The notes beneath the pieces are model-generated. The model was given only the letters and a program-made list of their open reading frames with translations. It was not told where the DNA came from and ran no database searches. Shown here piece after piece: positions 904 through 47,689 of a DNA stretch of 64,000 nucleotides. This stretch comes from a virus (taxonomy: Duplodnaviria > Heunggongvirae > Uroviricota > Caudoviricetes): positions 716-64,715 of the IMG/VR virus record IMGVR_UViG_3300028833_000126; one strand, written 5' to 3'. The position numbers were made by a program, and so were the translations under genes. Numbering within the stretch: the stretch's first letter is position 1; each line of letters opens with the position of its first letter.

Positions 904-1240
904 CTTCTTCCTCGTGATCGCCCTGATAGTTATACATCTTCATTGCGTCAATGGCCTCAGCATAAAGTCTCTCAATCTCTTTAGCAGACCTGAGAGCTTC
1001 CGTCTTGGCCGAGATAAGCTGCACTTGCTTATCCAATATCTCAAGCTCCTTCTTCTCTCTGACTGTTGCTAGCTTTAAATAGTGCGTCACGATCTGAGCA
1101 GGGGCATTTCCCTCCCTCAGCTGCTTCTCTGCTTGTGCAACTGCCAGATTAATCATCTGAGCTTCCCTTGCTTCTGGATCAAGCTCAGGAACAAAATCTT
1201 CAGAGGGGGTTTCTACTATGGTTTTCTTAACTCTTGGCAT
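887..1240 (-). CDS. coiled-coil protein, possible terminase small subunit or packaging protein
   Basis: 117 aa, strong RBS AAAGGAGG; sits between the GC-rich structured region and the HNH gene at the start of the putative packaging operon; no diagnostic motif seen. Confidence 0.3.
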   Translation of the reverse strand: MPRVKKTIVETPSEDFVPELDPEAREAQMINLAVAQAEKQLREGNAPAQIVTHYLKLATVREKKELEILDKQVQLISAKTEALRSAKEIERLYAEAIDAMKMYNYQGDHEEEDENIF

Positions 1241-1299
1241 ACTTCACCCCTCCTTTCTGATAAATATCAACATGGTTGTGATGCGTTTAGCAGCACTTT

Positions 1300-1530
1300 C
1301 GACCTACTTTTGCGGTGCTTAGAGAGGCCCACAAAGACCAAAAAGCGTCTCTTGAAAGGAGAAGAAAAAAGAGACAGGATACTGTGCCTATCCGAACATG
1401 TCTTGTGGGCCCGTCTAAGCACCGCAGGGGATAAAAGACCTCTCAAAAATCGACCCCCCGGAGAATTTTCGAGGGCAAGCGCGATGACAGAGGGGAGCGC
1501 ACACTCGAGACCCCCCGGGGGTACTCTGGA
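1300..1530. other. GC-rich structured non-coding region with long inverted and direct repeats (candidate cos/pac or structured RNA)
   Basis: GTGCTTAGAGAGGCCCACAAAGAC (1311-1336) against GTCTTGTGGGCCCGTCTAAGCAC (1397-1420), about 22-bp inverted repeat; GACCCCCCGG direct repeat at 1452 and 1510. Confidence 0.45.
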
Positions 1531-1679
1531 TTATGTCTCTACAGGGTGTTTTCCAAATTGGAGATTCAAAAGAAGTCTTGAAAAGATCATAAAGCGCTGT
1601 AAAAATTTCTCCTTTTTAAATTCTTGGTGAAACTTTTAGAGATTCACCGGGTCTCTGTAAATATTTTTCGGAAAGTCAA

Positions 1680-2117
1680 TCAGTTTTCGTCAGCAGATTT
1701 TTCTTTTTCTTCATCAGCTTCTTCAATTTTCGTTTCAGAATTTTGGAGATTCGCTGCGCTCTCAGAAAAATCGTCTGAATTTTCGTTGGAATTTGTGAGT
1801 TTCTGCAAGCCAACAATCGGTTTCTGCAACTGACTTGCTTGCTTTTCTTCAAATTCTTCGAGTTTACTTTTGGAGATTCGCACTTTCTTATAAATGTTCA
1901 TGAAATCGTACTTAATGATTTCATCGATCGCATTCTCAACTGCTTTTTCTCGTTCTTCATCAGACATTTCATCAGAAATATTGGAGATTCGATCGAGATA
2001 AGCGCAAGAATGATAGCCTTTTTGGTTGTCGTAATTGAACCAGCTATCGAACTGCGTAAACGGATCGTAGGGATTATCGACAGTCGTCAACGCTACCGAA
2101 TAAATTTCGTCGTCCAT
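1680..2117 (-). CDS. hypothetical acidic protein
   Basis: ORF 1680..2135 trimmed to MDDEIYSV preceded by AAAGGAGAAAGTG. Confidence 0.5.
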   Translation of the reverse strand: MDDEIYSVALTTVDNPYDPFTQFDSWFNYDNQKGYHSCAYLDRISNISDEMSDEEREKAVENAIDEIIKYDFMNIYKKVRISKSKLEEFEEKQASQLQKPIVGLQKLTNSNENSDDFSESAANLQNSETKIEEADEEKEKSADEN

Positions 2118-2131: not shown

Positions 2132-5008
2132 TCAATCTAAGTATTTCACGACAGTGGAGGTTGAAATGCCGATTGCTTCTGCGATCTCGCCGTTTGTGTA
2201 ACCGGAATCCTGCATTGCCTTGATCTTCGCTATCTTAGCATCGGAGATTGAGCGTGTAGCTTTGGGTGTTGCATAATTTCGGATGACATCACCGTCTGCA
2301 TACTTCAGGATCTTCATCAGGTCATTTTCGGAGATTGCGCCGTTCTGGATTGCTTCCCACTCATCTTCGGACACAGAAATGCCGGATCGCTTTGCTCCGG
2401 TCTCTCTTCTCGCTTTCGTCAGTTCCTGCTGTGCAATCTTCTGTCGTTCTTTCTTCGACAAATCAGGATTCTCTTTTGCGATTTTGGAGATTCGTGCGTT
2501 TGCAACTAGCTGAGCTTGACGTTCTCTCGGAGCATTCTGTTCTGCGACGTTGAGCTGCGCCTGTAAGTGTTCCACTTCTTTGGCATACTTTTCGACAGCT
2601 TCTTTTGTTTTCTGAATTCTGCCAGTTGTAACGTACTCTTTTCGAGCATCGTTCGCCAAAGATTTCATGGAATTTGCGTAGTCTGCATACAGGAGCTCAA
2701 TTGGAGATCTGCCTTTGGAGACAAGCTGCATAGCATCGTCTGCTACAGCCATCTTCGTGGTCTTGATTGTACGGGTCTGGAGCTTCCCTTTGCTGTCCAC
2801 ATAGGTCTCGGGCTCCTTGCTTGTGTCCCAATACAACTTTCCCGTCTCCGGATCGATCTTCTGCATCCCCCGGTATTTCGGAACTCTGGCATCGGATTTT
2901 GCGGAAGAGATGATCGTAGCAGCACCAGTAGAGTACCGCCCATCCTCCGTATAGTGCCCCTGCCATCTGTTCTTAAGAGCGGGGATGTCGTTGTCGATCT
3001 CGGACTGTTTATAGTCCAGCTTATGCTTCGGAGCGTCGATAACAACCATGGAGTGTCGGACAGCTTTTGCAAGCTCCTCCGGACCAGCGCCCCCGATTGT
3101 CATGTCGGTAATGAGGTTAGAGACCCTCCCCATTTGCTGCTGCTTTTCGGCCTCAGACATAACTTTGAATTCATGCCCGTTGCGATAATAATGGAGATTC
3201 CCCTTATCATCCCTCCGACTCTCCGTATAACTATAATTGTCCTTCGGATCGAAGCCTTTAAGCCCCGGAAGTTCGGGAGTAGATGTAATGTTGGCCCGTC
3301 CGGAGAGCGGAATGACCATGACGGTATCCCCATCAAAGTCTGCTCCGGAGAGTCGCTCTGCAACTTTGGAGTTAATGCCTACGGCATCCATCGCATTCGG
3401 AGTGATAACTCTCTTGGCCTCCTCATTCTTGTCCGTAACCTTCAGGATCGGAATTTCGAATGTGCCCCCATGAGGATAACGAACAAGCGCTACCTTCTCG
3501 CCGGGTCGGAAATTAGGTGCATACACCTCGTCGTCCTTGAGCGAAGTGATCGGAAGGATTACCTGATAGCTCTGCCTCGGAAGTGCCGCAGCTTTCAGAT
3601 GAACAGCCGCCTTATCGCAGTCGTTTGCGAAGTTGATGAGCAGGTGCTTCTTGACTGTCGGATTGGTCAGAGCGGAGATCTCTTCGAACTCTGCCTGCTT
3701 ATCGATCTTAGCCAGCCGGAGCTGCTGCTCAACGAGCTTTCGGTTCTGTTTAGAGAGGAACTGGGACGGAAGATCGTGGCTCCACTCTCCCCAGTCGCCT
3801 TCGGCAGCGCGCTTGTTGATGACGGAGAGCTGCTTTTCACCGTTCTTATCGATGTAATATCTTTGTCCGCCCATGATAGGCGCATTCGGATCCGTCGGAT
3901 CTTCAATGCCTTCCTTGATGAGCGAGCCGAACGGGTTGTTCGGATTCTTCGTATCGATCGGCTTGAGAACACTCTTTGCGTCCTTCGTTGCACCCATCAT
4001 GGGAACAGACGAATTCTTGTTTGTGTTAAATATCAAGTCGACTCCGGGCGGAAAGTCCTTATCATCTCCGTAAACAGCCATACCCTTGATGTAATGCGTA
4101 CCATCAACAAGAATCCGGACCTGAGCATAAGTGGAGTTGCCGAGAGAAATATCTTCCGGCCCTCTCCGAATCTCAACGACACCGTCCTTGTCCTTGCCGC
4201 TCGGTTCCTGATCTGCATAACGAATCATGACACGCTTCGAATCAAGGGACTTCGGATATACCCAAGCCGGACGATACGTTTCGCCTCCGTCATCGGAGAT
4301 CATCTCGCCAACCTGACTGATTGCACCGTAGTTGTAAATATCTTTCTTCTCGGATCCGGGAGGGCACACCACCTTGAGCGTGGTCATCATGCCCTTATTC
4401 GTTGCCTGAGGAACTCGTCCGCCATAAGTCGGATAACCCTCCATCTCAAGAATCATCAGCGCATTATCAAGTGTGTTTCTCGTCACGCCGAGTCTTCGCT
4501 CAACATTCACGCCGACGTCAATCATGCCCTTGGAGTCGATTTCGGTCTTCAGATACTTTGCCGTATTGTAGGCAGAATTCATTCTCTCCTCAGACTTCGT
4601 GTTGAGAAGCGAACGGACCGTGGATTCGTTCAGTCCCATCTTCTCACCGATCTCGGTTGCACCCATTCCGCGCTCTTTCATACTCTTTGCCTGTTCAACA
4701 AGAATTGCGCGGCGATAGTTCTTTGCAACGGAGAGCTGCGAACGGAGCTTGGACGGAGACGGTTCTCCTTTGTAGTTGAGAATATCCAGCTCACGGGCAA
4801 TCTCGGACTCTGTCATACCCTTGGATTTCATCGAGTTGACACGGGAGATGAAGTCGCCGGTTCTCTGATACGGATTCTCACCAGAACCCCACGGATACCG
4901 TCCGGAGCGTCTCGGCATGCCGTAATGCTGCAAAATATCAATTTCACACTCGTCGAGGATCTCTCCCGTATGTTCATCCACGACGATGTTTTTGTCTACT
5001 TCAATCAT
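2132..5008 (-). CDS. YonO-like single-subunit RNA polymerase (two double-psi beta-barrels) with N- and C-terminal sigma-r4-like HTH modules
   Basis: beta-prime-like motif VALVRYPHGG...ITPNAMDAVG...GADFDGDTVMVIPL (compare NRAPTLHR...NADFDGDQMAVHVPL) at about aa 505-568. beta-like GGRVPQATNKGMMT (compare GRHGNKG) at aa 196-209 and PGVDLIFNTN...VPMMG. HTH repeats at aa 60-135 and aa 935-958 (GYTNGEIAEAIGISTSTVVKYL). RBS AGAGGAGGAAT. Confidence 0.6.
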   Translation of the reverse strand: MIEVDKNIVVDEHTGEILDECEIDILQHYGMPRRSGRYPWGSGENPYQRTGDFISRVNSMKSKGMTESEIARELDILNYKGEPSPSKLRSQLSVAKNYRRAILVEQAKSMKERGMGATEIGEKMGLNESTVRSLLNTKSEERMNSAYNTAKYLKTEIDSKGMIDVGVNVERRLGVTRNTLDNALMILEMEGYPTYGGRVPQATNKGMMTTLKVVCPPGSEKKDIYNYGAISQVGEMISDDGGETYRPAWVYPKSLDSKRVMIRYADQEPSGKDKDGVVEIRRGPEDISLGNSTYAQVRILVDGTHYIKGMAVYGDDKDFPPGVDLIFNTNKNSSVPMMGATKDAKSVLKPIDTKNPNNPFGSLIKEGIEDPTDPNAPIMGGQRYYIDKNGEKQLSVINKRAAEGDWGEWSHDLPSQFLSKQNRKLVEQQLRLAKIDKQAEFEEISALTNPTVKKHLLINFANDCDKAAVHLKAAALPRQSYQVILPITSLKDDEVYAPNFRPGEKVALVRYPHGGTFEIPILKVTDKNEEAKRVITPNAMDAVGINSKVAERLSGADFDGDTVMVIPLSGRANITSTPELPGLKGFDPKDNYSYTESRRDDKGNLHYYRNGHEFKVMSEAEKQQQMGRVSNLITDMTIGGAGPEELAKAVRHSMVVIDAPKHKLDYKQSEIDNDIPALKNRWQGHYTEDGRYSTGAATIISSAKSDARVPKYRGMQKIDPETGKLYWDTSKEPETYVDSKGKLQTRTIKTTKMAVADDAMQLVSKGRSPIELLYADYANSMKSLANDARKEYVTTGRIQKTKEAVEKYAKEVEHLQAQLNVAEQNAPRERQAQLVANARISKIAKENPDLSKKERQKIAQQELTKARRETGAKRSGISVSEDEWEAIQNGAISENDLMKILKYADGDVIRNYATPKATRSISDAKIAKIKAMQDSGYTNGEIAEAIGISTSTVVKYLD

Positions 5009-5568
5009 GCCGATTCCTCCTCTGTACGAATTTCTTCAATAAGATTGTCGAATTCTACGATTTTGTCCATAACGTCACGGATTGTCTGAGCAGAGGGCGT
5101 GTAGATCAGAATCTGACAGTTCTGATAAATCCTCAGCTCCATTTGAATGTCTTCCGGATCGACGTCATACTCCAAACAGAAAAGAGCCGCGTAAATATAA
5201 AGCTGCTCTTCATGTGCCGGAATAGATCCGCTCTTGTAATCATGAATGCGAAGAAAACCGTTCTCAAAGAGAATCGCGTCCGTCGTGCCGAAACAGTTGC
5301 GGGAGTAATATAAAGGCTGCTCTGCTGTCATGCCGAAGTCTACGGCATCGTTGACATACATATTGAGCGTGTCTTTCTTTCTCGCAAGTTTCTGCTTCAT
5401 GCGGATGCACTCTGCTGCGAATGCGTGTTTCTTCGATCCTTCTTCAGCCGCAAAATATCCATGGAACACTTCAGCCATCCGTGCAGGACTGTAGCGGACC
5501 CAGTGATACTTTGATGCGGAGAGGAAAGCATGCTTGCCTTCAATCTCAGAATGCTTGTTGAAGTGCAT
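5005..5568 (-). CDS. PD-(D/E)xK nuclease (Cas4/RecB-like fold)
   Basis: GTTDAILFENGFLRIHDYKSG matches the GxxD...(D/E)YK signature of the PD-(D/E)xK family; start overlaps the RNAP gene (ATGA). Confidence 0.5.
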   Translation of the reverse strand: MHFNKHSEIEGKHAFLSASKYHWVRYSPARMAEVFHGYFAAEEGSKKHAFAAECIRMKQKLARKKDTLNMYVNDAVDFGMTAEQPLYYSRNCFGTTDAILFENGFLRIHDYKSGSIPAHEEQLYIYAALFCLEYDVDPEDIQMELRIYQNCQILIYTPSAQTIRDVMDKIVEFDNLIEEIRTEEESA

Positions 5569-5851
5569 TCAGTACCTCCTCTCGGTTCTCAGGAAATATA
5601 AAGGCAGCGAATGACATGTCATTCATCTTCCCCACCCAATAGTCCTGATTCTGCCGATGACTTGCTCCAGCACTCCTTTTGCACTCGAGCATTGCCCAAT
5701 GTTCCCCATAATACATTGTAATGTCGGGGAACCCGTCCTTCAGTCCGGTTGCGTTTTTCATAACCACACAGCCGGGGAACCGCTCTTCCAGTTCATGAAT
5801 CACTTCTGACTGAAAGCGGCTCTCTTTCTTGTTTTGCCCTTTCTTTGCCAT
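5546..5851 (-). CDS. VRR-NUC domain nuclease
   Basis: GFPDITMYYGEHWAMLECKRS matches the VRR-NUC GxPD...ExK signature; RBS AAAGGAGAAAAATA. Confidence 0.55.
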   Translation of the reverse strand: MAKKGQNKKESRFQSEVIHELEERFPGCVVMKNATGLKDGFPDITMYYGEHWAMLECKRSAGASHRQNQDYWVGKMNDMSFAAFIFPENREEVLNALQQAF

Positions 5852-5912
5852 ATTTTTCTCCTTTCATGGCAAAAATATCAAGAGAAGAATAGCACTTTTT
5901 ACTTCTCCTCTC

Positions 5913-5943
5913 TCTTCATAAAAGAGAATGCATTTTTCGCGTA
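5913..5943 (-). promoter_or_regulatory. conserved promoter-like element (TCGCG-class), copy 1
   Basis: Minus strand: ACGCGAAAAATGCATTCTCTTTTATGAAG, upstream of the nuclease-RNAP operon. Confidence 0.5.
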
Positions 5944-6449
5944 AAAATCGGTCAAAAAGAAAAATGCGATGACCGATTCGCGAAGTTATCCTTTGCAACA
6001 CAGATATGACCTGCCGCCAGGAGGAACCCTGTCAGAATATCCATAATGACGGCAGATGCATACTTGTGTTGTGCGCAGCGTCGACACCACATGCAAACGC
6101 AATAGCGCCGAAGTCCAGACAAGAGACATCTATTGGGAGTTGGTCAGATTATACTGTCCGATGGTGAGGACGTGTAGGCTCGTTTAAAGAATCCCATAAA
6201 TATCAATCTGACACGGATGTCGCTGTCATATACCCGACACTCGGTGCGGTATTCAGAAAGTGACTTGGCGTGCATAGCACAGATCCTAAGATCAGTTCTG
6301 AAATATCCATGACACTACGCTGACGTTATCCGTAGAAAGGATGAAAGAACGGACAGCGTCATGTGCTTCAATCTCATTTTTATTCAAGGAGGTATTTCTG
6401 TCCGTGGAATAAAAAATAAGAGAAGAGAATAAGCACAGTTTTCTATCTT

Positions 6450-6480
6450 CTCTCATTACAGAGAATGAAATTCTCGCGAC
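6450..6480 (-). promoter_or_regulatory. conserved promoter-like element, copy 2
   Basis: GTGTCGCGAGAATTTCATTCTCTGTAATGAGAG. Confidence 0.5.
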
Positions 6481-6521
6481 ACACTTGCTCGATCTAAAAT
6501 ATCCATAGACAAAAAAAGAGA

Positions 6522-6539
6522 AGACGCTTATTCAGCGTC
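6522..6539 (-). terminator. hairpin terminator (GACGC-TTATTCA-GCGTC) plus T-tract
   Basis: Stem-loop followed on the minus strand by TTCTCTTTTTTTGTC; overlaps the 3' end of the 6528 gene. Confidence 0.5.
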
Positions 6540-6776
6540 CTCATCCTTTTCGGTTTCCGATTCGTCTTCTTCTTCCTCGGTAGTTTCTCCGTCGAAGATC
6601 TCATTCTCTTCCGTTGCTTCGTCAGCTTCCTTCGCCGCCTTGAGAGCTTTCCGCTTCTCGAGGACAGTGCCGGCGCCCATCCCAATGATGAACACCGCAG
6701 TGCCTGCGATCACTTTCGCTCCCGCTACGACGATATTCTTGCTTTCCTTCAGCACGTCGCTCATAAATTTCTTCAT
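6528..6776 (-). CDS. small membrane protein with acidic C-terminal tail
   Basis: 82-aa ORF, one TM helix then an E/D-rich tail; RBS AAAAGGAG; driven by the promoter motif at 6818-6848. Confidence 0.5.
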   Translation of the reverse strand: MKKFMSDVLKESKNIVVAGAKVIAGTAVFIIGMGAGTVLEKRKALKAAKEADEATEENEIFDGETTEEEEDESETEKDEDAE

Positions 6777-6817
6777 GGTTTAAAAACTCCTTTTTGAAAT
6801 ATAAATTTGGAATCGTG

Positions 6818-6848
6818 TTCCATTAAGACACATGAAAATTTCGCGACG
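6818..6848 (-). promoter_or_regulatory. conserved promoter-like element, copy 3
   Basis: TCGCGAAATTTTCATGTGTCTTAATGGAAC. Confidence 0.5.
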
Positions 6849-6959
6849 ACAAAATCGATCTCTAATTGCCTTGAACTACTCTCTCAGCCGTGCCAAAATA
6901 TCTTGCCGAAAACGGATCAGAGACGGATCAAAAATGCACTGAAAATCACCCCAAAAATC

Positions 6960-7270
6960 ATCGAAAAATGCCTCGTGACCAGTTGACCAGTTTTTTCGCT
7001 ATATATTTTATTTTTTAAAAATTTTCTTTTTTTATTGAAATGGGAAAAAAAAGTGGGCAACTGGTCAGGACCCCCCTGAAACCCTTGTCTTTATTGGGTT
7101 TGAGGGGTGACCACTTTTCTAAAAAAACTGGTCAGAAACTGGTCAATTGGCCAAAAATGACCACTTTTACAATTGTGTAACTCAAAAAATTCTGGCCAAA
7201 AGACCACTTTTACAAGTGTAGTTTTAAAACTTTTGGCCACGAAATTGGTCACTTTTTTACTCAAATTTTC
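6960..7270. repeat. iteron-like array: GACCACTTTTAC x4 and ACTGGTCA / TGACCAGT repeats next to an AT-rich tract
   Basis: gtgaccacttttct (7107), atgaccacttttac (7160), agaccacttttacaag (7207), tggtcactttttta (7248); gaccagttgaccag (6977), aactggtcag (7060), actggtcagaaactggtcaattggcc (7129); AT-rich run at 7000-7050. Confidence 0.5.
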
Positions 7271-7558
7271 ACTAAATTTTTTCGCCATGAAAAGTGCAAA
7301 ATATCACGCCCAAATCCTCAACTAATTTTCGAGATCTAACCTAGAATAGCGCCGCCATTTCCCCTGTTCAAAATATCAACCTGACCCGCGTCGCACACTT
7401 CGAAATTTTACTCTAACAACTTAGAGTATTGTATTTCTCGGAGCGAATGAGAGTCGAATTCTGAGCCTGTCCTGCGCCAGACACTCACCGCAGACCCAAG
7501 CAATGAATCAAAAAGAAAGAGCCAACGCTTAAGTCGCGTCGACCCAATCTCGTAAGTC

Positions 7559-7906
7559 TCACAACTCAACCACACCACTCTTAATGGCTTTTTTGATGTC
7601 ATATAAGAATGCTTCATATGCCCATATGCTTTTATACTGTGTTTCAAGATATGTCTCTTCTGATATAAACTCAAAGAACGGATACGGGATCCCAAGCATC
7701 TTGCGAATTCTGAAGCAAAGCAGACACCATCTGAACAGCCATTTAGCGTCTTTACGCTTAAACAGCGGCACAATATAGTTACTGTCTCCTCCAAAGTTTT
7801 CACAAAGCTGCTTGAACATCTGCGTACCTTTCCAGTCACAGAGAAGAATCTGTAACTCATTAATATAAATTGCCTGTTCATATGCCAGTTTGTCATTCCG
7901 TTTCAT
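7559..7906 (-). CDS. hypothetical protein
   Basis: 115-aa ORF with RBS AAAGGAGATTGAG; preferred over the overlapping 162-aa frame, which is Cys/Arg/Ser-rich. Confidence 0.5.
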   Translation of the reverse strand: MKRNDKLAYEQAIYINELQILLCDWKGTQMFKQLCENFGGDSNYIVPLFKRKDAKWLFRWCLLCFRIRKMLGIPYPFFEFISEETYLETQYKSIWAYEAFLYDIKKAIKSGVVEL

Positions 7907-7947
7907 AACTCAATCTCCTTTAAAATTGCAAATAATTGAATTGTTTT

Positions 7948-7977
7948 CTCCATATAATGCAATGAATTCTACGCGAC
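7948..7977 (-). promoter_or_regulatory. conserved promoter-like element, copy 4
   Basis: TGTCGCGTAGAATTCATTGCATTATATGGAG. Confidence 0.5.
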
Positions 7978-8022
7978 ATCTCGCCAATTCAAATATCAAT
8001 CCGCACAAAAAAAAAAAGAGAA

Positions 8023-28334: not shown

Positions 28335-28365
28335 TTTCATTATACGGCATGAAACTTTCGCGAAG
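28335..28365 (-). promoter_or_regulatory. conserved promoter-like element, copy 9
   Basis: TTCGCGAAAGTTTCATGCCGTATAATGAAACC. Confidence 0.5.
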
Positions 28366-29542
28366 AATATCTACTCGATACATAGTCTTGTTCGTTGAAC
28401 TGCTTCTTCTCCTTGAGCGCCCGCTTGATCGCAACATCAATCCCGGCAAAAGAACGAAGATGGAAGTAGTACAAAATATCATACGGCGTGTTGCGTCTGT
28501 CAATTCGGCCCGTCGCTTGCTTCAGTGTCTTGTAGGAATAATTCTGCGAGTAGAAGATCGTTGTATCCGTTGTGATGCAATTCCATCCCTCAGCTCCTGC
28601 GCTGTATTGAGACAGATATACCCAAGAGTCACCGCTGAGAGTTCTGACATCTTCGTGCTTATGTCCGTTCCACTCTGCATACATGATTCCTCGCTCTTCA
28701 CAGAAATTCCGAAGAATCTCAAGCTCGTAGTCGAAGTTATAAAATATAATAGCTTTCGGATGCTTCTTAAGTATCTTCTCAAGAGCCTCTACCCTGCTTG
28801 GATCGCTGTTGCAGACTTTTCTCTGTGCATAGCATAGCTCACCGGCAGTGTCAATTGGCTCACACTTCCAAGGATTCCACATGTCACGAGCAAGGCTTTT
28901 GTACTTCAAAATATCATACTCAACCATGACATCCTCATGCTTGCTCTCTGTTCGCTTTTTGTAGTCCATCTTCACGAGAATCTGATTGCGATATCGTTTC
29001 AGTTTATCCTGCTCGAGATACCTGTCAATCTTCGGAAAATTTGTGAACTGAGAATAGACGATATGCTCATGGACGAACTGAGTGCGATTCTTATAAAAGC
29101 CGTTCGCAATGAAAACCGGAATATAGTCTTTCCACGTGTCTCCCGGAGTTGCTGACAAGAGAATCCATCGGTTCTTCTTCACGATCTTGAGAAAACACTT
29201 CACCCAAGCTCCTGATCCTACAACACGCTGCTCATCAAATATAAAGAATGCGTCGGAGACACCGACGTATTTCTCAATGTTATTCCATGAGTCAACGACA
29301 ATGTCTCCGACAAACGGCATTCCAAACGGCTCACATTCCTCAGGCCACTCCTTCGTATCACGCTTCTTTGCAGTTGTGATAATATAAAGCGGCATCGAAG
29401 ACCCATGCTCACGGAAGTCTTTCTCGTAGTATGCAAGAGCTGTACGAGACTTTCCGGAACCAACGTCCCCGCAAAGAATGCAGCCGTTTTTCATTCGATT
29501 TACGGCGTCAATCTGATAGTCATCAAGAATTACATTCGGCAT
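28340..29542 (-). CDS. SF2 ATP-dependent helicase (DEAD/SNF2-like)
   Basis: Walker A GDVGSGKSRTAL, DExx box IFDEQ, motif VI QATGRIDRR. Confidence 0.65.
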   Translation of the reverse strand: MPNVILDDYQIDAVNRMKNGCILCGDVGSGKSRTALAYYEKDFREHGSSMPLYIITTAKKRDTKEWPEECEPFGMPFVGDIVVDSWNNIEKYVGVSDAFFIFDEQRVVGSGAWVKCFLKIVKKNRWILLSATPGDTWKDYIPVFIANGFYKNRTQFVHEHIVYSQFTNFPKIDRYLEQDKLKRYRNQILVKMDYKKRTESKHEDVMVEYDILKYKSLARDMWNPWKCEPIDTAGELCYAQRKVCNSDPSRVEALEKILKKHPKAIIFYNFDYELEILRNFCEERGIMYAEWNGHKHEDVRTLSGDSWVYLSQYSAGAEGWNCITTDTTIFYSQNYSYKTLKQATGRIDRRNTPYDILYYFHLRSFAGIDVAIKRALKEKKQFNEQDYVSSRYSSRKFHAV

Positions 29543-34134: not shown

Positions 34135-37100
34135 TTAGAATTTCGGTGTTTCAGGAGGCCAATCTGCTGGCGGCTCCTTATCAACTAACTTGTAATAGTC
34201 ACCGTAACCGCAAGCAATACCGACAGAATTGATCGTTTCAATCGCTTCATTTGCAAGAGCATCATAATAGCTTACGTCTATCATATCCTGCTTATTCAGC
34301 TCTTTCACGATCTCTGATTCGAGCCATCGGTAGCCCTTTGTTCCTGCTACGGCATAGTACTTATTGTCAGCATTCCGGTAGAGTACACCGCCTTCTCCAC
34401 CGGGAACGATCGGACAGAACTGCCCAATACGTCCTACGAAAATATAATTGTGAGACTTACTCTCTTTCTCACGAAGCTCGGTGAGTCTAACCTCCACCAT
34501 GTCGTCCGTGAGTTCATACCGCTTGAGGATCTTCTCCTTCGACACTTTTGCATCGGGTTCGAGCATCTTCTGCAAATCCTCAAGTTCTTTTACTTCAACC
34601 GCACTCAGCTGAGGCAGTTTCTCATTCATGTCAATGACGATGGACCCCTTTGCAACAGACTTTGTCTCGCAGTAATCATCGAACTTGAGCTCCTCACCGG
34701 AGAACAAGGTCTTAAATACATACGGGACTTGGAACTGTGTGCCAGTCGCGGTCCACCAAATATCATCGCCAGTCTTTTTGTCTTTGAGCGGCTCCTTGTA
34801 CTTTGCAACATACACTGCATCATTCACAAGGCAGAATTTATCGAAGTCTGCTTCTGTCTCGAACGAATATCCATACTCGTGACCAAACTTGATGACGAAA
34901 TTGCGAATCTCATCCGTCGCATTCGGTATCTTGATGGAGTCCGTCTTGATGTGAGCAACCTGATAACCTCTCTTCTGGACCTCGCTCTTAAGAAGTGTCA
35001 TAAAGAGTGCACCGCGTTTTGCAACGATATTGTCGACATTTCGAGGATCGCGGAACCGGTTTGTGAACTTCGCTGAGGTAAGACCGTAGATTGCGTTGAT
35101 GACGATCTTCAGTGCCTGAGCAAGACCGGGCGCATTATCATCCGTAAGCCAAGGCTTGAGAACGCCGTTTAGATAAGTTACTGCAAGATCGAAGTCCTTA
35201 TGCTTGATTGCAACACGTGACTCAACGACTTCCTCAAATATCCTTGTGTACTTTGGTCCGAATAAGACCTCAGCAATTGCACTGTGCGGATGCTGCGAGG
35301 AAATATCCCCATCCCAGACACCAAGATGAATTCCGGGTTCTGCATAGACACGTCCTCCTTCTCCGATCTCTTCTCCAAGATAAGTTGACTTGCCATATTC
35401 AAACTTATATCCCGGGAAGAACGGAAGAATGGAATATCCATCAGGCAACGCCACACACCCGTCTCCATCGTAAACCTCGTACGTAGGAAGTCCGTTCTCA
35501 TCAAACACGTGGAACACATACTTGTCGCCGAACTTCTCACGATACTCGGAATACTGTGTCCAACTGACAGGTTTCGAGAGATCTCTGTAGTTGAACTGAG
35601 TCTGCGGGTCTTTGTCCGATCCAAATATAATTTTCTCAGACAGCGAGTTGGTTGTGTCATTGACTGTTACTGTGCTGATACCGTGGAGAGCCTTAACAAG
35701 CTCAACCTGAATCTGCCTTGCCATAAAGTCTTCCTGCCGTGCGTTCCAGACCGCCTCTGTTGCGATGACGTCATTTGCACAGTATTCCGCAACTTTATCC
35801 CAAAGCTCTTCAGGTACCGGCTCGTCCCAAGGCAAACCAAGCTCCTGATGGTGAATTCCGAGCTCAATCTCAAATTTCTTCAGGGACTGTTTCTTCGAAG
35901 AGAAGTCGTAAATATCCGTGTAAGACAAGTTATACGCATTGCCGAACTTACCGCCGATTTTAGCGCCTTTCTCTGAATCAATAATCGTCTTTGAAAGATG
36001 ATAGAGCTGCTCGTTTGTGTAACCGAGGATTCTGGCATACAGAATGTGGTTATCATACTGTCGACAGTTGAAACCTATCAACTTGTATTGCGTGAGCTCT
36101 TCAATTTCCTGTGGCGTCGGATTAATCATTCTGACAACAGGCTGATCATCTCCAAGCGCCTTGTAGCACACAACAAACAAATTAATGAAAACTTCAACGT
36201 CAAAAAATATCAAAATATCCTTTTTGATTTGATATTCGTCTCCCGGAGGCTCACTGTCCTCAGATTTGAACTTCATCTCAGCAACGAGCTTTGTGCAATA
36301 GTCTGCGTTATGTGTACTGTTCGAGGCGAACGTGAGAACGGATTGGAACATGTCGCTCACATCATAATGAACACCGCTTGCATAAGCATCGTCAAGGACT
36401 TTCTTGATGAAGTCAACACTGGGTTTTGTTCCGGGATGGTACTCTTTGCAGAGGTTACGCTTAATAAGCGTACGAATGGCCTTTTCGTTTTTAACAGTCT
36501 CCGTGTTTACCAATTTATCTTCTCCTTTCAATGGTAAACCTGAGCTGATTTCGGCTATCTGAAGATCATTGCACTTCGTCAGCTTTCTTCTCAGGGTCAT
36601 GTTTCCCGTAAACACCTTAATCTCGATTCTGTCGTCAAAGATGCGGCTCAGTTTTGTCGGATCTCCTTTATAAATATAATGGAGATGGATGCCCTGACCG
36701 CTCTTGGACAGCTCTCCATACGTAGGAGGCCATCTGCTGACTGCTTCCAGATTCTTCTCGAGTGACTTATTGCCGTTCTCGTCTGGAATATCAAAATCGA
36801 TCACAATGTGATTTACAGGAACTCTGACATAGTGAAGCTGCGATGTGTCAAGATCCTTCAGTTTCGTCTGTACGTTCGACCATTTCCTCTGCGGGATTCC
36901 TTCTTCAGAGGCGTATTGCGCTGGATAATCTGTGGCAAGAATATCAAAGAGAGATGCCTGATCCCTTGGCTTGAACCAGCATTCGGGTTTCTTCTCGCCG
37001 TCAGACTTTTTGGAACTTTTTTCAGAAAATTCTTCCAGGGCAAATTTTTCCTTTCTGAATCCACCGTACCATTTGCGAACACGACCTCCGTCATCTGCAT

Positions 37101-38343
37101 TGGCACGTTCCTTGACTTCCTTGAAGTAACTCTTGAGCTCCTCTTTAAATAAGCGATACGACAGTGGATACGGTACATTCGCATCCTTGTTGTACGTCTG
37201 GTACTTTTCCCAAGCACCTTTGAGAGTCGTTCCATCGTCACGCTCGAAAGTCGAGTAATAGTACTCAACGAAATTGTAGAAATCGTTCGAGGCACCCATC
37301 ATTCTCATCGGTATGTAGTTATCATATCGATTCGGGTCCTCAAGGTAAACGTCGAGACAATGTTTTGCAATTGCTCCAAGCTCGAACTTGACCTGCGATT
37401 TGAGATGGTCATACTCTTTTCGCGGAATCTTATCGCCTGTTGGGATCACATCAATGAGACGTCGGATAATACCTGACTTTGCATCTGTGATTCGCACAGG
37501 TTTGTTCGTACCCATGAACATGAAGCTGTTGAAGCGAGTGGAGTACTGTGTCTTATGCTTCTCGTTCACCAGCATCTCATCGTGGGAGGCTATTGAGTTC
37601 AATCGTGTATTGTCTTCAATATGGCTCAAGTCTCCGTCCTGTTGGATTGCAACAAGCGGATTTGAACGGAATGCTTCAAGGGCAAATGCTGCGTTGGAAT
37701 TACCGAGTGACTTAGCATCGAAAACACAATAATGCCCGACAAAGAGAAGTTGAATAATGTCAAGAATGGTCGATTTACCTGTACCCGGATCTCCATAGAA
37801 CACCATGAACTTTTGAATGTTCTTGGAGTCCCCTGCGACCACAGCACCAATTGCCCATTCTATCTTCTGTCTTTCTTCCGGAGAATATAAAACAGTCATA
37901 AATCTCTCCCATGCCGGGTACTCTCCTGCCTCAAGCGGATACGGCAAGCGTTTTGATGCATAGTCCTTTTTATTTACTTCATCATTTTGAAAGACCAATT
38001 TCTCATCGAGTGGATGGAATGAGTCACGCATCTGCTTCTGACAGTACTTGTGCCATCTATCAGCGGTTCCAGTCGAGGCATAGCGCATATACATGACGTG
38101 AGCAATATCGCCACTTGCAGACTTGTTGTACTCCTCTGCATAGTCATGAAGCTCTCTGTCTACAAGGTCAATTAAGTCCTGCTCACTTGTAGACCAGAGC
38201 CCCCTCTCCTCAATCCATACAGCATAGAAATCGCCGCCTTTGATCATCAAGTCTTCGCTTGGGTTACAAATGATGAATTCTGGGTAGATCTCTACATGAC
38301 CACGCTTAGTTGAACGGGTAAACACCCGGAAGAAGTCCGCCAT
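34135..38343 (-). CDS. replication fusion protein: SF3 (D5/P4-like) helicase, AEP-type primase and family-B DNA polymerase with 3'-5' exonuclease
   Basis: Walker A FYGDPGTGKST (aa 183-192); AEP motifs IVIDFDIPDE and SGQGIHLHYIY (about aa 515-560); exonuclease motifs FFDVEV, FNCRQYDNHILY and YCANDVIATE; polymerase motifs GDISSQHPHS, KIVINAIYG and HIKTDS. Confidence 0.75.
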   Translation of the reverse strand: MADFFRVFTRSTKRGHVEIYPEFIICNPSEDLMIKGGDFYAVWIEERGLWSTSEQDLIDLVDRELHDYAEEYNKSASGDIAHVMYMRYASTGTADRWHKYCQKQMRDSFHPLDEKLVFQNDEVNKKDYASKRLPYPLEAGEYPAWERFMTVLYSPEERQKIEWAIGAVVAGDSKNIQKFMVFYGDPGTGKSTILDIIQLLFVGHYCVFDAKSLGNSNAAFALEAFRSNPLVAIQQDGDLSHIEDNTRLNSIASHDEMLVNEKHKTQYSTRFNSFMFMGTNKPVRITDAKSGIIRRLIDVIPTGDKIPRKEYDHLKSQVKFELGAIAKHCLDVYLEDPNRYDNYIPMRMMGASNDFYNFVEYYYSTFERDDGTTLKGAWEKYQTYNKDANVPYPLSYRLFKEELKSYFKEVKERANADDGGRVRKWYGGFRKEKFALEEFSEKSSKKSDGEKKPECWFKPRDQASLFDILATDYPAQYASEEGIPQRKWSNVQTKLKDLDTSQLHYVRVPVNHIVIDFDIPDENGNKSLEKNLEAVSRWPPTYGELSKSGQGIHLHYIYKGDPTKLSRIFDDRIEIKVFTGNMTLRRKLTKCNDLQIAEISSGLPLKGEDKLVNTETVKNEKAIRTLIKRNLCKEYHPGTKPSVDFIKKVLDDAYASGVHYDVSDMFQSVLTFASNSTHNADYCTKLVAEMKFKSEDSEPPGDEYQIKKDILIFFDVEVFINLFVVCYKALGDDQPVVRMINPTPQEIEELTQYKLIGFNCRQYDNHILYARILGYTNEQLYHLSKTIIDSEKGAKIGGKFGNAYNLSYTDIYDFSSKKQSLKKFEIELGIHHQELGLPWDEPVPEELWDKVAEYCANDVIATEAVWNARQEDFMARQIQVELVKALHGISTVTVNDTTNSLSEKIIFGSDKDPQTQFNYRDLSKPVSWTQYSEYREKFGDKYVFHVFDENGLPTYEVYDGDGCVALPDGYSILPFFPGYKFEYGKSTYLGEEIGEGGRVYAEPGIHLGVWDGDISSQHPHSAIAEVLFGPKYTRIFEEVVESRVAIKHKDFDLAVTYLNGVLKPWLTDDNAPGLAQALKIVINAIYGLTSAKFTNRFRDPRNVDNIVAKRGALFMTLLKSEVQKRGYQVAHIKTDSIKIPNATDEIRNFVIKFGHEYGYSFETEADFDKFCLVNDAVYVAKYKEPLKDKKTGDDIWWTATGTQFQVPYVFKTLFSGEELKFDDYCETKSVAKGSIVIDMNEKLPQLSAVEVKELEDLQKMLEPDAKVSKEKILKRYELTDDMVEVRLTELREKESKSHNYIFVGRIGQFCPIVPGGEGGVLYRNADNKYYAVAGTKGYRWLESEIVKELNKQDMIDVSYYDALANEAIETINSVGIACGYGDYYKLVDKEPPADWPPETPKF

Positions 38344-38616: not shown

Positions 38617-39162
38617 TCAATCGTCTAAAATCTCGTTAAGGTACCAATTCATCTGATACCAAATCTGAACTTCTCTTAAGTCATCTGCACATTTTCTGAG
38701 ATGAAATAATCCACCCTTGCCATCTCTATCATAACGTCTGTGAAGAAAAACAGAGATATGCTCATTTACATAGCTCTCATCATACAGATCATCAGTCATA
38801 GGAGCAAGACCAAGATTCGAAATCATCTCAAAAAACCAGCGAGGCGTTCTGTCTCCAATGTCAGGATCATCCATAATATCCTCTTCGCAACGAATTGCAA
38901 GTGCTACCATCATCTCGAGCACAGAGCACTCGGTGACGTCAAGCTCATTCACAATTACTTTGCTTGGGATATTCTGGTCTGCGCCAAAACGGTATCTGAG
39001 TTCGAGCCCATCCTCCTTACGGTTCTTATCCATAGGAAGAATATAAAAGAACTCGATCTCATTCAGTCGTCTCAGCAGTTTTCTGTACTTATCTCGCTTG
39101 TTAACAGGAACAACCTTACTGTACATCCAGTCAAAATATCGTTCTTTCAGTTCATTATTCAT
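38617..39162 (-). CDS. hypothetical protein
   Basis: 181-aa ORF. Confidence 0.5.
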   Translation of the reverse strand: MNNELKERYFDWMYSKVVPVNKRDKYRKLLRRLNEIEFFYILPMDKNRKEDGLELRYRFGADQNIPSKVIVNELDVTECSVLEMMVALAIRCEEDIMDDPDIGDRTPRWFFEMISNLGLAPMTDDLYDESYVNEHISVFLHRRYDRDGKGGLFHLRKCADDLREVQIWYQMNWYLNEILDD

Positions 39163-39817: not shown

Positions 39818-40786
39818 TCACACCTTCTTGTACGGAATTTTACTGTAGACGATTTCAGAGCAGTTGAAGTCAAGCCACACCGCATTGTTCTCACCGAAGA
39901 CAAAGTCACGAACAGACTTCTGGCTAAGATCACCGACACCGAAATCGACATAATTCTTGTTATCGTCATTCGGATCATAGACCCAACCGAACTGTTCCCC
40001 CGCCTGTGTCTTTTCGAAGCCAAGCGCCTCGTAAACCTCATTAAGTCTGAGAACACGATTTGCAACAAGTCTGTCCGTCATCTCAGCCATCTTGCGGTTG
40101 AGGAACATAGCATTGTACATAGCGTCTTTCTGCCAGTACTTGCTGTCTTCATTGAAGCACCGTGCGAAGTCACTGAGCTGATAGTTCTCCTTCGGCTTCT
40201 TGGTCGTCACAGTCTCCTCCTTGCCATTCTCGTCGGTCTTCGTCTCCTCGACTTCTTCCATCTTGTCGGCAAAGCGCAGTTCCTTGTCAACCTCCTCGCC
40301 ATACTTCTCGACAACTTTCTTGCGATAGTCATCGAACTCCTTGACAAGGACGCCGTTTGCAGCGAGGAGACCTGCGTTACGATTGGACAGGATTCTGTGA
40401 GAGGTGAGGACACAGGCAATAGAGAACGCACCCATCAGGACAACAGGAGCATAGAGCTTTGCAACTTCTCCCGCGCCTTTCAGATAACCGATTGTGACGT
40501 CATGCTTCATGTCTTCTTCGGTGTACCGAGACTCCGGAAGGATTTCGAACCCCTTCTCTTCTGCTTCTACAATATGCGCTCTCTTGCCCTTGGCTTCCGC
40601 AATGATTCGCTTCGGTTCTTCAAGGGCCTTCTCCGTCTTCTTTCCGGCACGCCATGCGAATACTACGGTCGTGATACCAGATGCGATAGCGAGTGCAACG
40701 AAGATCTCAGGCGAGTGCTTCTGTGCACCAAGTTTGGCGTTCGTTGCAATGTTCTTCATGCCAGTTGTGATTTTTTCGAATTTCAT
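39818..40786 (-). CDS. membrane-anchored protein, member 1 of a three-gene paralog family
   Basis: TM after a short N-terminus, long helical region, conserved C-terminus LNEVYEALGFEKTQAGEQFGWVYD shared with the 41427 and 43244 genes. Confidence 0.5.
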   Translation of the reverse strand: MKFEKITTGMKNIATNAKLGAQKHSPEIFVALAIASGITTVVFAWRAGKKTEKALEEPKRIIAEAKGKRAHIVEAEEKGFEILPESRYTEEDMKHDVTIGYLKGAGEVAKLYAPVVLMGAFSIACVLTSHRILSNRNAGLLAANGVLVKEFDDYRKKVVEKYGEEVDKELRFADKMEEVEETKTDENGKEETVTTKKPKENYQLSDFARCFNEDSKYWQKDAMYNAMFLNRKMAEMTDRLVANRVLRLNEVYEALGFEKTQAGEQFGWVYDPNDDNKNYVDFGVGDLSQKSVRDFVFGENNAVWLDFNCSEIVYSKIPYKKV

Positions 40787-41426: not shown

Positions 41427-42239
41427 TTAGATTTCAACATAACCGAACACACCTGGATCGATAAGCTTTGCGTTCGGTCTGATTGTATAGACGGGCTTGC
41501 CATCCATGATTGTCGTGGAAACATCAAAGCTTGCCTGATCGGAAGATTTGAAGCAGTCGTCAAATCTCCACCCGTATGCCTCTCCGATTCCAGTTAAACC
41601 ATGGCCAATGATCTCATATGCTTCATTCAGAGTCACTTCGTCACCAGCATTGAGTCTGCGATTGATCTCATTGACCGCTGCATCGAGAGTATTCTTAGTT
41701 ACCAGGAATGGCTTGCCTTCAAGTCCATCGAACGTCAGATCATAGCACCAGTATTTCCCTTCTTCAGGGACGAACTCTGGAATCACGTCCGGCTTCGGAG
41801 TTTCTTTCAGCTTCTTCTCGACAACCTTATCATCGATCTCCTTGGCCTTCTCTTCGCCTACAACATCCTTTGCTGCATCGACATAGTCGGCAATGTTCTT
41901 GGATGCCATCTCGGAAATTGCACATGCAGCCGTACCGAGCTTTGCAATACGTTTATCGTTTTCGACGGCAGATGCAACGAGGAAGAGAGTTCCGCCGATC
42001 AGAGCGCTTGCAGGAGCCGTAAAATGCTTCGCTGCGATCTTGCCCTTCTCAACACCATCGATCTCTTCTCCGGTCTCCGCCTTCTTATCTTCGAGTTCTT
42101 TCTTGAATTTCGGAATTTCCGTACCGAGCAAATATCCACCCGTCACGAGAAGGATCCCTCCAAATGCCGTAGCAATCTTGGGCCAATGCTTGTTGAGAGT
42201 CTTGCCGACATTTTTGATAATTTCTTTTGCTGTGCTCAT
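41427..42239 (-). CDS. membrane-anchored protein, member 2 of the paralog family
   Basis: C-terminus LNEAYEIIGHGLTGIGEAYGWRFDD aligns with members 1 and 3. Confidence 0.5.
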   Translation of the reverse strand: MSTAKEIIKNVGKTLNKHWPKIATAFGGILLVTGGYLLGTEIPKFKKELEDKKAETGEEIDGVEKGKIAAKHFTAPASALIGGTLFLVASAVENDKRIAKLGTAACAISEMASKNIADYVDAAKDVVGEEKAKEIDDKVVEKKLKETPKPDVIPEFVPEEGKYWCYDLTFDGLEGKPFLVTKNTLDAAVNEINRRLNAGDEVTLNEAYEIIGHGLTGIGEAYGWRFDDCFKSSDQASFDVSTTIMDGKPVYTIRPNAKLIDPGVFGYVEI

Positions 42240-43243: not shown

Positions 43244-44026
43244 TTAAATTTCACACATCTCAAAACCATAGCGTGCTCTGCAAATTGGCTGGACGACATA
43301 TGATCCGTCACCAGAGCATGTGTAAGCGAAATCAAGCCAAGAACTTGCATAGCGACCGTCAACATCATTGTATATGGACTCATAACTCCAGCCAATGTCT
43401 TGTGCTTTAAGCCGATCAATACCGTAGTCAGAAGGTTCGATGTCGAAATATCCAATGACATCCCAAAGCGTTACGCTACCAATCAGATCAAGATGACGAT
43501 TAATGCGCACGACAGCGTTTGCGATATCGAATCTTGTAGCCATGAAGCTGATGTCTGGGCAATCTTCATAAAGATCCTTCAAGACCGCATTAACTCTTTT
43601 TTCTCCTGTTTCGATATCTGTATATTCAACTCCTTCATCCGGCAGCTTTTCCTCTTCAATCGCTTCTCTGACAGAAACATCAGCCTCTTCGCCATTGATC
43701 TCACCATTCTTAAGCCGATAGTTCTTATATGCCTGCTGAACCGCGACATATGCGCCTGTCAGACTTGCCTGCGTATTGAGATCCATGCAGTGTGCACCAA
43801 CCCCACAAGCCACAGACACAGCAGCACAGCCGATTGCCGGACAAAACACCTTTGCGCCAGTCACGACCTTGTCCTTCTTCGACATCTCAGGGTTTGCATC
43901 GAGAGCCTCTTTGAACTTCGGACCCTCCTTAGCCGCAAATATCACGGCTGCGATTGTTGCTCCGGAGCCGAGAACGGTAAGGACCGTCGGCAGGATTTTC
44001 CGGATCATGTTGCTTGCTTTGCTCAT
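43244..44026 (-). CDS. membrane-anchored protein, member 3 of the paralog family
   Basis: Trimmed to MSKASNMIRKI preceded by GAAAGGAGAAATCACA; C-terminus LWDVIGYFDIEPSDYGIDRLKAQDIGWSYE. Confidence 0.5.
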   Translation of the reverse strand: MSKASNMIRKILPTVLTVLGSGATIAAVIFAAKEGPKFKEALDANPEMSKKDKVVTGAKVFCPAIGCAAVSVACGVGAHCMDLNTQASLTGAYVAVQQAYKNYRLKNGEINGEEADVSVREAIEEEKLPDEGVEYTDIETGEKRVNAVLKDLYEDCPDISFMATRFDIANAVVRINRHLDLIGSVTLWDVIGYFDIEPSDYGIDRLKAQDIGWSYESIYNDVDGRYASSWLDFAYTCSGDGSYVVQPICRARYGFEMCEI

Positions 44027-44074
44027 TGTGATTTCTCCTTTCATAATTATAGTTGAATGAGCTTAAAAACTTTG

Positions 44075-47403: not shown

Positions 47404-47607
47404 CGTTCTCTTGGTCTTCTTCCAATTAGGGAATTTTGTCTTCATGATTTGCTCGTGATAAAATCTCACTGGGCATCGGTCACAGTCAAGCCGAACATTC
47501 CTCATGCAACAAATTGCGCATGACTTCTCAAACATCTTAATTGCCTGAGGAGCGTTCGTTGCCATGTCCTGATACTCCATAGATTTCGCTACAAAGTTTG
47601 AATACAT
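47392..47607 (-). CDS. small Cys-containing protein
   Basis: Trimmed to MYSNFVAKSM preceded by AAAAGGAGATTTGAAATT; CAICCM...CDRCP. Confidence 0.4.
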   Translation of the reverse strand: MYSNFVAKSMEYQDMATNAPQAIKMFEKSCAICCMRNVRLDCDRCPVRFYHEQIMKTKFPNWKKTKRTDAE

Positions 47608-47627
47608 AATTTCAAATCTCCTTTTCT

Positions 47628-47663
47628 GGATTGTCTCCATTAAGAGAGATGAAATTATCGCGA
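47628..47663 (-). promoter_or_regulatory. conserved promoter-like element, copy 18
   Basis: AATCGCGATAATTTCATCTCTCTTAATGGAGACAATCC. Confidence 0.5.
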
Positions 47664-47689
47664 TTAGAATATCCATTAGCTTATCGGGG

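Follow-up and report, generated by a model that had tools for sequence, protein, structure and literature searches.

The analyzed window is a 64-kb stretch of phage DNA in which essentially all genes lie on the minus strand. Along the direction of transcription, tail and lysis genes are followed by an integrase gene (47946-49262), three DUF6353 paralogues, a helicase-polymerase fusion, a single-strand-binding protein, an SF2 helicase (28340-29542) and about 20 kb of small ORFs. Then come the non-coding gap studied here, p82 (encoding a small membrane protein), genes for an endonuclease, an exonuclease and a 958-aa polymerase-like protein, a small gene, a second gap, and a putative terminase small-subunit gene, so named with no confirming family match. 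The proteins most often referred to below are encoded as follows.

34135-38343, minus strand: helicase-polymerase fusion of 1402 aa, with an SF3-type helicase domain (DUF5906) and a family-B DNA polymerase
5546-5851, minus strand: VRR-NUC-like endonuclease, part of the conserved cassette 2132-5851 downstream of the repeat array
5005-5568, minus strand: Cas4/RecB-like exonuclease, part of the same cassette
2132-5008, minus strand: RNA polymerase-like protein of 958 aa with a DFDGD motif, part of the same cassette

The 958-aa protein has helix-turn-helix regions near both ends and matches the PHROG family 'RNA-dependent RNA polymerase' (E = 0). Annotations of its 250 GenBank phage homologues vary (HTH DNA-binding, RNA-dependent RNA polymerase, tail fiber, structural protein). 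The scan of the genome collection with this protein yielded no relatives, and tblastn against Bacillus phage records gave no detectable similarity. The helicase-polymerase fusion and the 'DNA primase/polymerase' of Arthrobacter phage Tribby share 46% identity. The DUF6353 paralogues (39818-40786, 41427-42239 and 43244-44044, all on the minus strand) are located just upstream of the DNA polymerase gene, and two Tribby genes match them. At the DNA level, neither the gap nor the first 20 kb of the window matches any GenBank phage.

The gap extends from the start of p82 (6776) to the stop of p115 (7559), both likely genes, and is 782 nt long; the length of about 630 bp given in the initial annotation holds (631 nt) only if an overlapping 162-aa ORF (7408-7896) is counted. 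The same annotation described the gap as free of ORFs of 60 aa or more, which is not the case, as there is a 65-aa minus-strand ORF at 7091-7288, made of repeat sequence. The neighboring p115 gene (7559-7906) is an insertion/deletion relative to the 97%-identical contig L001, where window positions 7467-7990 are replaced by about 57 nt. Features of the gap are listed below along the gene strand.

7519-7545, minus strand: terminator-like hairpin closing the upstream transcription unit
7246-7256, minus strand: site 1, AAAAGTGACCA, a one-mismatch variant of the motif
7201-7211, minus strand: site 2, AAAAGTGGTCT, followed by TTTGGCCA
7158-7168, minus strand: site 3, AAAAGTGGTCA, followed by TTTTTGGCCA
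7148-7239: three TGGCCA palindromes (7148, 7193, 7234) beside sites 3, 2 and 1
7135-7145, plus strand: site 4, GAAACTGGTCA, in the opposite orientation
7124-7134, plus strand: site 5, AAAACTGGTCA, in the opposite orientation
7108-7118, minus strand: site 6, AAAAGTGGTCA, abutting the hairpin
7068-7107, minus strand: GC-rich inverted repeat (hairpin) CCCCTCAAACCC-N11-GGGTTTCAGGGG
7049-7067, plus strand: overlapping sites 7 and 8, AAAAGTGGGCA (7049-7059) and GCAACTGGTCA (7057-7067)
6997-7044: A/T tract of 48 bp, counterpart of the relatives' AT core GATAAAAAGTTTAA...TATATA, expanded in the window
6976-6994, minus strand: tandem sites 9 and 10, AAAACTGGTCA (6984-6994) and TCAACTGGTCA (6976-6986)
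6945-7290: conserved core of the element, sharing 98.0% identity with L001
6878-6944: variable block separating the array from the p82 promoter, with 45% identity to L001
6820-6853, minus strand: p82 promoter cassette TCGTCGCGAAATTTTCAT-N6-TTAATGG, about 125 bp downstream of the array

Positions 6976-7256 contain about ten copies of the 11-mer AAAA[G/C]TGG[T/G]CA in both orientations. Its exact matches in the 64-kb window number five, all of them inside the gap (6984-7256); with at most one mismatch allowed, this interval holds 8 of 15 window matches, while the other seven fit the chance expectation of 8.05. Two weaker copies (6976-6986 and 7057-7067), identified by eye, bring the total to about ten. 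The four repeats spaced by about 40-50 bp that had been noted earlier are indeed present, GACCACTTTT being exact at 7109, 7159 and 7202 and represented by the variant TGGTCACTTTT at 7246 (spacing of 50, 43 and 44 bp); its continuation ...TTTTAC is found only at 7159 and 7202. The half-site repeats reported together with them are real and far above chance, but they do not constitute separate repeat types, since GACCACTTTT and ACTGGTCA repeats are the same 11-mer on opposite strands. Repeat statistics, suggested earlier as a check, support the cluster: TGACCAST has eight matches in the window, seven of them in 6976-7165, versus 2.85 per 64 kb in shuffled sequences, and none of 100 shuffles reached eight.

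On the gene strand, three forward sites are followed by two reverse ones, one forward site and the GC-rich inverted repeat, and then by two reverse sites, the A/T tract and two forward sites. The TGGCCA palindromes and sites 3, 2 and 1 form a tandem unit of 43-45 bp, and a tandem unit of 41 nt covers 7147-7239. Sites 7 and 8 are the upstream arm of an inverted pair around the A/T tract, with their T run turned toward the tract when read on the gene strand, and sites 9 and 10 are the downstream arm. The long A/T run noted earlier at 7000-7050 spans 6997-7044. Positions 7000-7039 are 95% A+T and comprise the 40-mer of lowest stability in the window (dG -38.1, versus a mean of -53.8 and a standard deviation of 3.6), and the least stable 50-mer and 60-mer of the 64-kb window are also within the tract.

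The p82 promoter belongs to a family of cassettes (GATATTnT..TTGTCGCGAnAATTTCAT-N6-TAATGG) with an unusually conserved spacer. At least eight copies are present on the minus strand of the window (at 6467, 6834, 26037, 28351, 42763, 44512, 45370 and 47651), only in its early and replication part. The array had been thought to sit between promoter cassettes, whereas both complete ones in this region (6820-6853 and about 6455-6500) are downstream of it. The detrended cumulative GC skew of the gene strand peaks beside the array in the window (region of about 4000-8000, maximum at 6434) and in Tribby (55327, about 55.3 kb); the small-ORF region upstream shows a skew of about 0.2-0.3, versus 0.03-0.11 downstream.

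Identity to L001 is 99.3% over 6976-7256, versus about 91% in the flanks and in the p82 coding sequence, and this difference suggests that the site span is under purifying selection. One might ask whether it is a small gene or a structured non-coding RNA that is conserved here, as the region contains the 65-aa ORF and has an RNA fold z-score of -4.6. However, in L001 (96.7% identical) the start of this ORF is changed from ATG to GTG, and a 1-nt deletion after codon 3 shifts the frame, while ORFs found in the arrays of relatives are repeat-encoded artefacts, unrelated to each other, so that the absence of a small conserved frame stands. The low folding energy of the array is explained by its inverted repeats, no Rfam family is matched (the best hit has E 0.9 and 21 bits, versus a cut-off of 100 bits), and the number and orientation of sites vary between relatives, unlike what is expected of an RNA structure. 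Hence we consider a gene or RNA extremely improbable. The families F91, F89, F110, F71 and F39 were likewise discarded as repeat-encoded pseudo-ORFs. A CRISPR array was rejected as well, the sites being 11 nt long, in both orientations and irregularly spaced by 8-50 bp, rather than regular direct repeats of 24-48 nt with unique spacers of comparable length.

Exonuclease-based scanning of viral contigs, polymerase-based scanning of metagenome contigs and a pattern search for iteron pairs together gave more than 100 loci, and the interpretation given below is drawn from the comparison with more than 80 related loci. The iteron-pair scan gave 36 matches, with only L034 and the L001 contig being true relatives, and a scan of viral contigs for the conserved hairpin returned only two contigs, both already known. 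The cassette of endonuclease, exonuclease, polymerase and small gene is kept throughout the collected loci, and in most of those with enough upstream sequence a repeat array is located 1.0-3.0 kb upstream of the polymerase gene. The same array layout is found at the same position in more than 60 related phages, the repeats being conserved in position and architecture, and often in sequence too.

The window motif, AAAAGTGG[N]CA, defines class I, which comprises 40 loci with 4-11 sites each. In 38 of them, no 40-mer of the locus is less stable than the AT tract, and in most class-I loci the sites on either side of it are inverted, with the A/T runs facing the tract. The order of elements (array, hairpin, inverted pair around the AT tract, gene) is identical in the 40 class-I loci, in Tribby and in L021, and the class-I layout precedes the cassette of endonuclease, exonuclease and RNA polymerase. 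Both the hairpin core AAACCC-N11-GGGTT and the AT core GATAAAAAGTTTAA...TATATA recur in gut-phage relatives; in L002 the hairpin has the same loop and a stem with one compensatory change from C-G to G-C. The AT core of these phages (TTGCGATAAAAAGTTTAAT...TATATA) resembles the window promoter cassettes (TTGTCGCGAAAATTTCAT-N6-TAATGG), and in L081 and L068 it has the form TTGCGA-16/17-TATAGT or TATATT. In many loci, a ribosome-binding site and an ATG follow the TATA-like box at about 55-70 nt (as judged by eye), the downstream sites falling into the leader.

Several relatives are cultured actinophages. Tribby (45% G+C) has the same motif at the same position, with its array at 54.8-55.1 kb; five of its seven genome-wide matches are in the array, and an apparent separate promoter follows the array, as in the window. 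Streptomyces phage Psst4 (about 59% G+C in the stretch read) carries seven copies of AAAAGTGGCA and retains an A/T-rich, dyad-symmetric tract between inverted sites. Repeats of the TTTGGCAG type are found in Gordonia phage Tanis and Rhodococcus phage ReqiPepy6, an oral phage contig carries AAAACTGGCA, and the smaller relative L021 has the same layout with AAAACGTAACA, placed before its polymerase operon. In Tanis and Psst4 the array is positioned just after the helicase gene.

The remaining loci (class II) have other motifs, often palindromic, such as TTGGATATCCAA, TGTACGTACA, GTTTAAAC and GTGACAC, among more. In 19 non-class-I loci, a gene encoding an RHH protein of 50-95 aa is located directly upstream of the array. 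Two of them score above the Pfam RHH_1 cut-off; comparison of a profile of the RHH alignment with solved structures gave only weak generic RHH matches (NikA, RelB, CopG, ParD; E 0.27-0.73), ranking below a match to a designed protein. A YRLRL core in the predicted beta-strand is common to the RHH proteins of all four listed lineages with GGATATCC arrays (L069, L119, L112 and L130), with about 33% overall identity between the extremes compared (L069 and L119), while other array motifs go with other RHH beta-strands.

A natural experiment is provided by the loci L119, L132, L115 and L117 of closely related gut phages, which are 94-97% identical on both sides of a swapped cassette consisting of the RHH gene and the array. 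The swapped cassettes have GGATATCC, GTTAAAC or GTATATAC sites and three different RHH proteins, every RHH variant being paired with a site of its own, while the hairpin, the AT tract and the downstream helix-turn-helix gene are identical in all four. The cassette occupies positions 2990-3500 of these loci, and its repeats double as coding sequence for the C-terminal tail of the RHH protein. In L115, L117 and L119 (3782-4489), the array is directly followed by genes that include a homologue of the anti-Thoeris protein Tad3 (Pfam E 1.6e-29) and others that, by appearance, encode lipoproteins and membrane proteins; the array thus seems to head a slot of variable accessory genes.

In these phages, the two sides of the AT tract carry an inverted pair of a further sequence that is specific to the lineage, its halves separated by 47-66 nt (for example, TCAGGGGAATAC / GTATTCCCCTAG, or a perfect 16-nt pair in L130). 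The general design thus consists of an invariant core (the inverted pair and the AT tract) and an auxiliary array, with class I using one motif for both.

The element had been annotated as either an iteron-type origin or a multi-operator control region, and after the comparison of more than 80 loci these are still the two leading readings. Neither of the conditions named earlier as refuting holds, since the repeats recur in related phages and no small coding frame is conserved. The chance that it is a multi-operator transcription switch, at the promoter region heading the RNA polymerase operon, is in our estimate slightly below even. Under this reading, about ten sites over 280 bp would be operators of a sequence-specific phage protein, with the inverted pair clamping an easily melted AT-rich promoter tract, and the element would head the last early/middle operon, comprising accessory genes, the endonuclease, the exonuclease and the phage RNA polymerase. 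A protein encoded by upstream genes would fill the auxiliary sites first, and then the two flanking ones, switching transcription that starts in the AT tract or passes through it and so timing expression of the nuclease-polymerase operon. We infer that the tract is, or descends from, a promoter, and that binding of the protein at the sites represses or activates.

One argument for the switch comes from sister lineages. RHH-fold proteins are mostly repressors; here, the RHH gene is found upstream of the array in 19 loci, its beta-strand goes with the motif, and in the four-locus series the gene and the array are exchanged together. The polarity is fixed, from the array through the hairpin and the AT tract to the gene, the ribosome-binding site and ATG come close behind the TATA-like box in many lineages, and the gut-phage AT core looks like the promoter cassettes of the window. 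Consistent with the same reading are the site-span identity to L001, well above that of the flanks, the absence of a motif-tracking segment from the helicase-polymerase, and the position of the maximum of the cumulative GC skew at the array, which fits a boundary of transcription units and not a bidirectional origin.

On the other hand, the AT tract of the window has no acceptable -35/-10 pair (the best sigma-70 match is 8/12, compared with 7 for the other strand). About 125 bp downstream there is a separate promoter of the cassette type, and Tribby apparently has one after its array as well. Sigma-70 scoring fails to discriminate the strands of the tracts: for 36 distinct class-I tracts, the mean scores are 8.08 and 8.03 on the two strands, with 16 versus 7 scores of at least 9. 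Moreover, the tract is kept at the G+C content of Tribby and of Psst4, and its dyad symmetry in actinophages is not needed by a directional host promoter. Ten sites of mixed orientation also exceed most operators. Finally, the motif spans phages from gut Firmicutes to Arthrobacter and Streptomyces, yet no regulator gene is adjacent to it, and what the window and Tribby detectably have in common is limited to proteins of replication, recombination and packaging, the polymerase, DUF6353, the 181-aa protein and the small post-polymerase protein.

In the window, no RHH gene adjoins the array, and no binder of its motif was recognized beside it or among the candidates compared. By phylogenetic profile, the binder should be among proteins common to the window and Tribby: the polymerase-like protein, the helicase-polymerase fusion, the DUF6353 paralogues, the 181-aa protein (38617-39162), the small post-polymerase protein, the nucleases, the single-strand-binding protein, the second helicase, the terminase small subunit and an HNH protein. 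Co-variation lends no support to the helicase-polymerase as the binder. In every 100-aa segment of the helicase-polymerase, L021, having another motif, is as similar to the window as Tribby, having the same one, and no segment therefore tracks the motif class (with L021 being the one contrasting lineage). The C-terminal helix-turn-helix of the polymerase was rejected as the specificity determinant, as the same helix is present in phages with different arrays. Neither DUF6353 nor the conserved 181-aa protein has a match among solved structures. The small families F25, F8 and F15, found beside class-I arrays, have no homologue in the window.

The other leading reading, an iteron-type replication origin, we regard as possible, though rather unlikely. 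The inverted pair would load an initiator or helicase symmetrically onto the melting AT tract, the extra upstream sites would be an auxiliary or copy-control array, and the RHH protein of sister lineages would be an accessory factor of specificity or control. The very observations that weigh against the switch count here in favor: the dyad-symmetric tract kept in actinophages of 45-59% G+C, the separate promoter after the array in the window and Tribby, the sigma-70 scores that do not separate the strands, and a motif conserved across host phyla with no adjacent regulator. In addition, the motif cluster is unique in the window and nearly so in Tribby, the AT tract is locus-wide the least stable segment in almost all class-I loci and is mostly flanked by inverted sites, and the element is located inside or beside replication and recombination genes in Tanis, Psst4 and L021. 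The phages also encode the SF3-type helicase domain (DUF5906) fused to a family-B polymerase, together with a second helicase and a single-strand-binding protein.

Iteron origins with an AT-rich unwinding element and flanking initiator sites are known from SaPI ori, HSV oriS (Box I/II) and lambda ori, and auxiliary iteron arrays from P1 incA and F incC. The phage element shares with them a cluster of short repeats, a melting AT tract with inverted sites around it, additional sites to one side and a single copy per genome. Unlike them, it has no adjacent initiator gene (no initiator-like gene was found within about 10 kb of the array) and no replication protein co-varying with the motif, the helicase-polymerase domains having been compared across one contrasting lineage, L021. 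Specificity swaps involve the small RHH gene (50-90 aa) rather than a replication protein, the polarity is fixed relative to the downstream gene and its transcription, and the AT core is promoter-like. The cumulative GC skew has a maximum at the array, opposite in sign to the minimum of an origin, although this is a weak test, all genes being co-oriented. No cluster of DnaA boxes is present either: there are 17 one-mismatch boxes in the window versus 14.9 expected, and none in 6900-7300, and a DnaA-dependent origin was rejected.

At the papillomavirus origin, E2 sites recruit the SF3 helicase E1 to the AT-rich E1 site (PMC6808437). The phage system would resemble it in combining a small dimeric DNA-binding protein that sets the specificity, an SF3-type helicase and an AT-rich core, with one factor possibly used for both transcription and replication. 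The likeness is an analogy only, the proteins being unrelated and the RHH protein not being known to interact with the helicase-polymerase. The PrpA antitoxin was reported to control plasmid copy number directly (PMC7848731). It is probably a small DNA-binding protein that regulates an iteron-type origin and is not the initiator; unlike the phage element, it comes from a plasmid toxin-antitoxin module.

The two leading readings can be joined in one, which we consider quite doubtful, if slightly less so than the polymerase-entry reading considered below. A very large group of phages of Actinobacteria and Firmicutes would share one modular control locus, with the invariant core acting both as the replication start and as the gate of the RNA polymerase operon, while the array and the RHH gene would form an exchangeable specificity cassette that sets cross-regulation among co-infecting relatives, in an immunity-like manner, in phages mostly lacking a classical repressor switch.

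Iteron and operator arrays are a known kind of element. At the same time, the literature searched contains no description of the tripartite conserved layout or of the swappable RHH cassette, and none of the replication start or the control of the polymerase operon in this phage group; in particular, the array is not described in the literature on Arthrobacter phage clusters AM/AU, ReqiPepy6 and phage 1706. All phages of the group have an unusual single-chain RNA polymerase, and its members include cultured phages of Arthrobacter, Streptomyces, Gordonia, Rhodococcus and Lactococcus together with many human-gut and rumen contigs. The comparison yields an element with precise limits, about 300 bp long, along with a consensus site, cultured hosts and a naturally occurring series of specificity swaps. 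As an origin, the element would be the cis-site for the replisome of the helicase-polymerase fusion; as a switch, it would be the timer of the phage-encoded polymerase.

A centromere-like partition site, with an array around a promoter bound by an RHH protein as in ParR/parC or omega, was also considered. Known RHH repressor/operator arrays include omega of pSM19035, ParR/parC of R1, CopG and Arc/Mnt. As in these systems, the sister lineages have a small RHH gene beside 4-12 presumed sites around a promoter-like tract, and specificity tracks the beta-strand sequence. Unlike them, the phage sites are dispersed (8-50 bp) and of mixed orientation rather than contiguous heptads or 11-mers, the window lineage has no adjacent RHH gene, and the phages lack a partner NTPase, with no ParA, ParM or TubZ-type protein among the neighbors scanned. 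The window phage carries an integrase, and the element is also present in Tribby, which has no annotated integrase; according to a survey, Galaxy is the sole Arthrobacter phage encoding one (PMC5513430). Taken together, this makes a partition site highly improbable. An attachment site (attP) was rejected, as the integrase gene of the window is far off and has a separate cluster beside it, five TACTAAAA repeats at 47600-48000, which are possibly arm-type attP sites.

Alternatively, the element might be where the phage-encoded RNA polymerase itself enters, or its promoter. The HTH domains of the enzyme would bind the sites and open the AT tract, and transcription would proceed rightward through the polymerase gene and then, after circularisation, pass the cos junction and reach the late genes, which are co-oriented. 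Of the two helix-turn-helix regions in the polymerase, the C-terminal one is nearly invariant across the group, as would suit a conserved motif; there is one cluster per genome, all genes are co-oriented, and the AT tract is kept whatever the host G+C. In SPbeta, we assume yonK to be downstream of yonO. A precedent is the SPbeta polymerase YonO, which transcribes late genes from a single start site (PMC5467207), located upstream of yonK (PMC5467207). However, the position of that start corresponds to the second gap of the window (1240-1680), which has a conserved element of its own, and the motif does not occur ahead of those late genes that the window contains. The reading is further weakened by class-II phages, whose polymerase has an unchanged recognition helix while their region contains no such sites. 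Therefore, we deem it improbable.

Finally, a packaging (pac or cos) recognition site is practically excluded by the positions of genome termini. Arrays of short repeats are typical for sites of terminase small subunits, and packaging of SPbeta starts in the yonR-yonP intergenic region next to yonO, that is, adjoining the polymerase genes (bioRxiv 10.1101/2021.11.22.469490). Like that region, the array is a non-coding segment just upstream of an RNA polymerase operon, but genome ends here are downstream of the polymerase, not upstream as in SPbeta. Indeed, 26 of 72 related contigs end 7-252 nt past the small post-polymerase gene, every GenBank relative listed has its polymerase gene at the extreme right end of the genome, and in ReqiPepy6 a 3' cos overhang is annotated at this end. 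These termini correspond to window positions 1240-1680, about 5.3 kb from the array.

This second non-coding gap separates the small post-polymerase gene from the putative terminase small-subunit gene. It contains repeats of the GAATCTCCAA type (in L002, GTCTCCAA is present five times) and the conserved element CATCGCGGCGGTCTTTAAAAATTCTCCGGGGG, and its counterpart in relatives has a long conserved inverted structure. It may hold a late promoter too.
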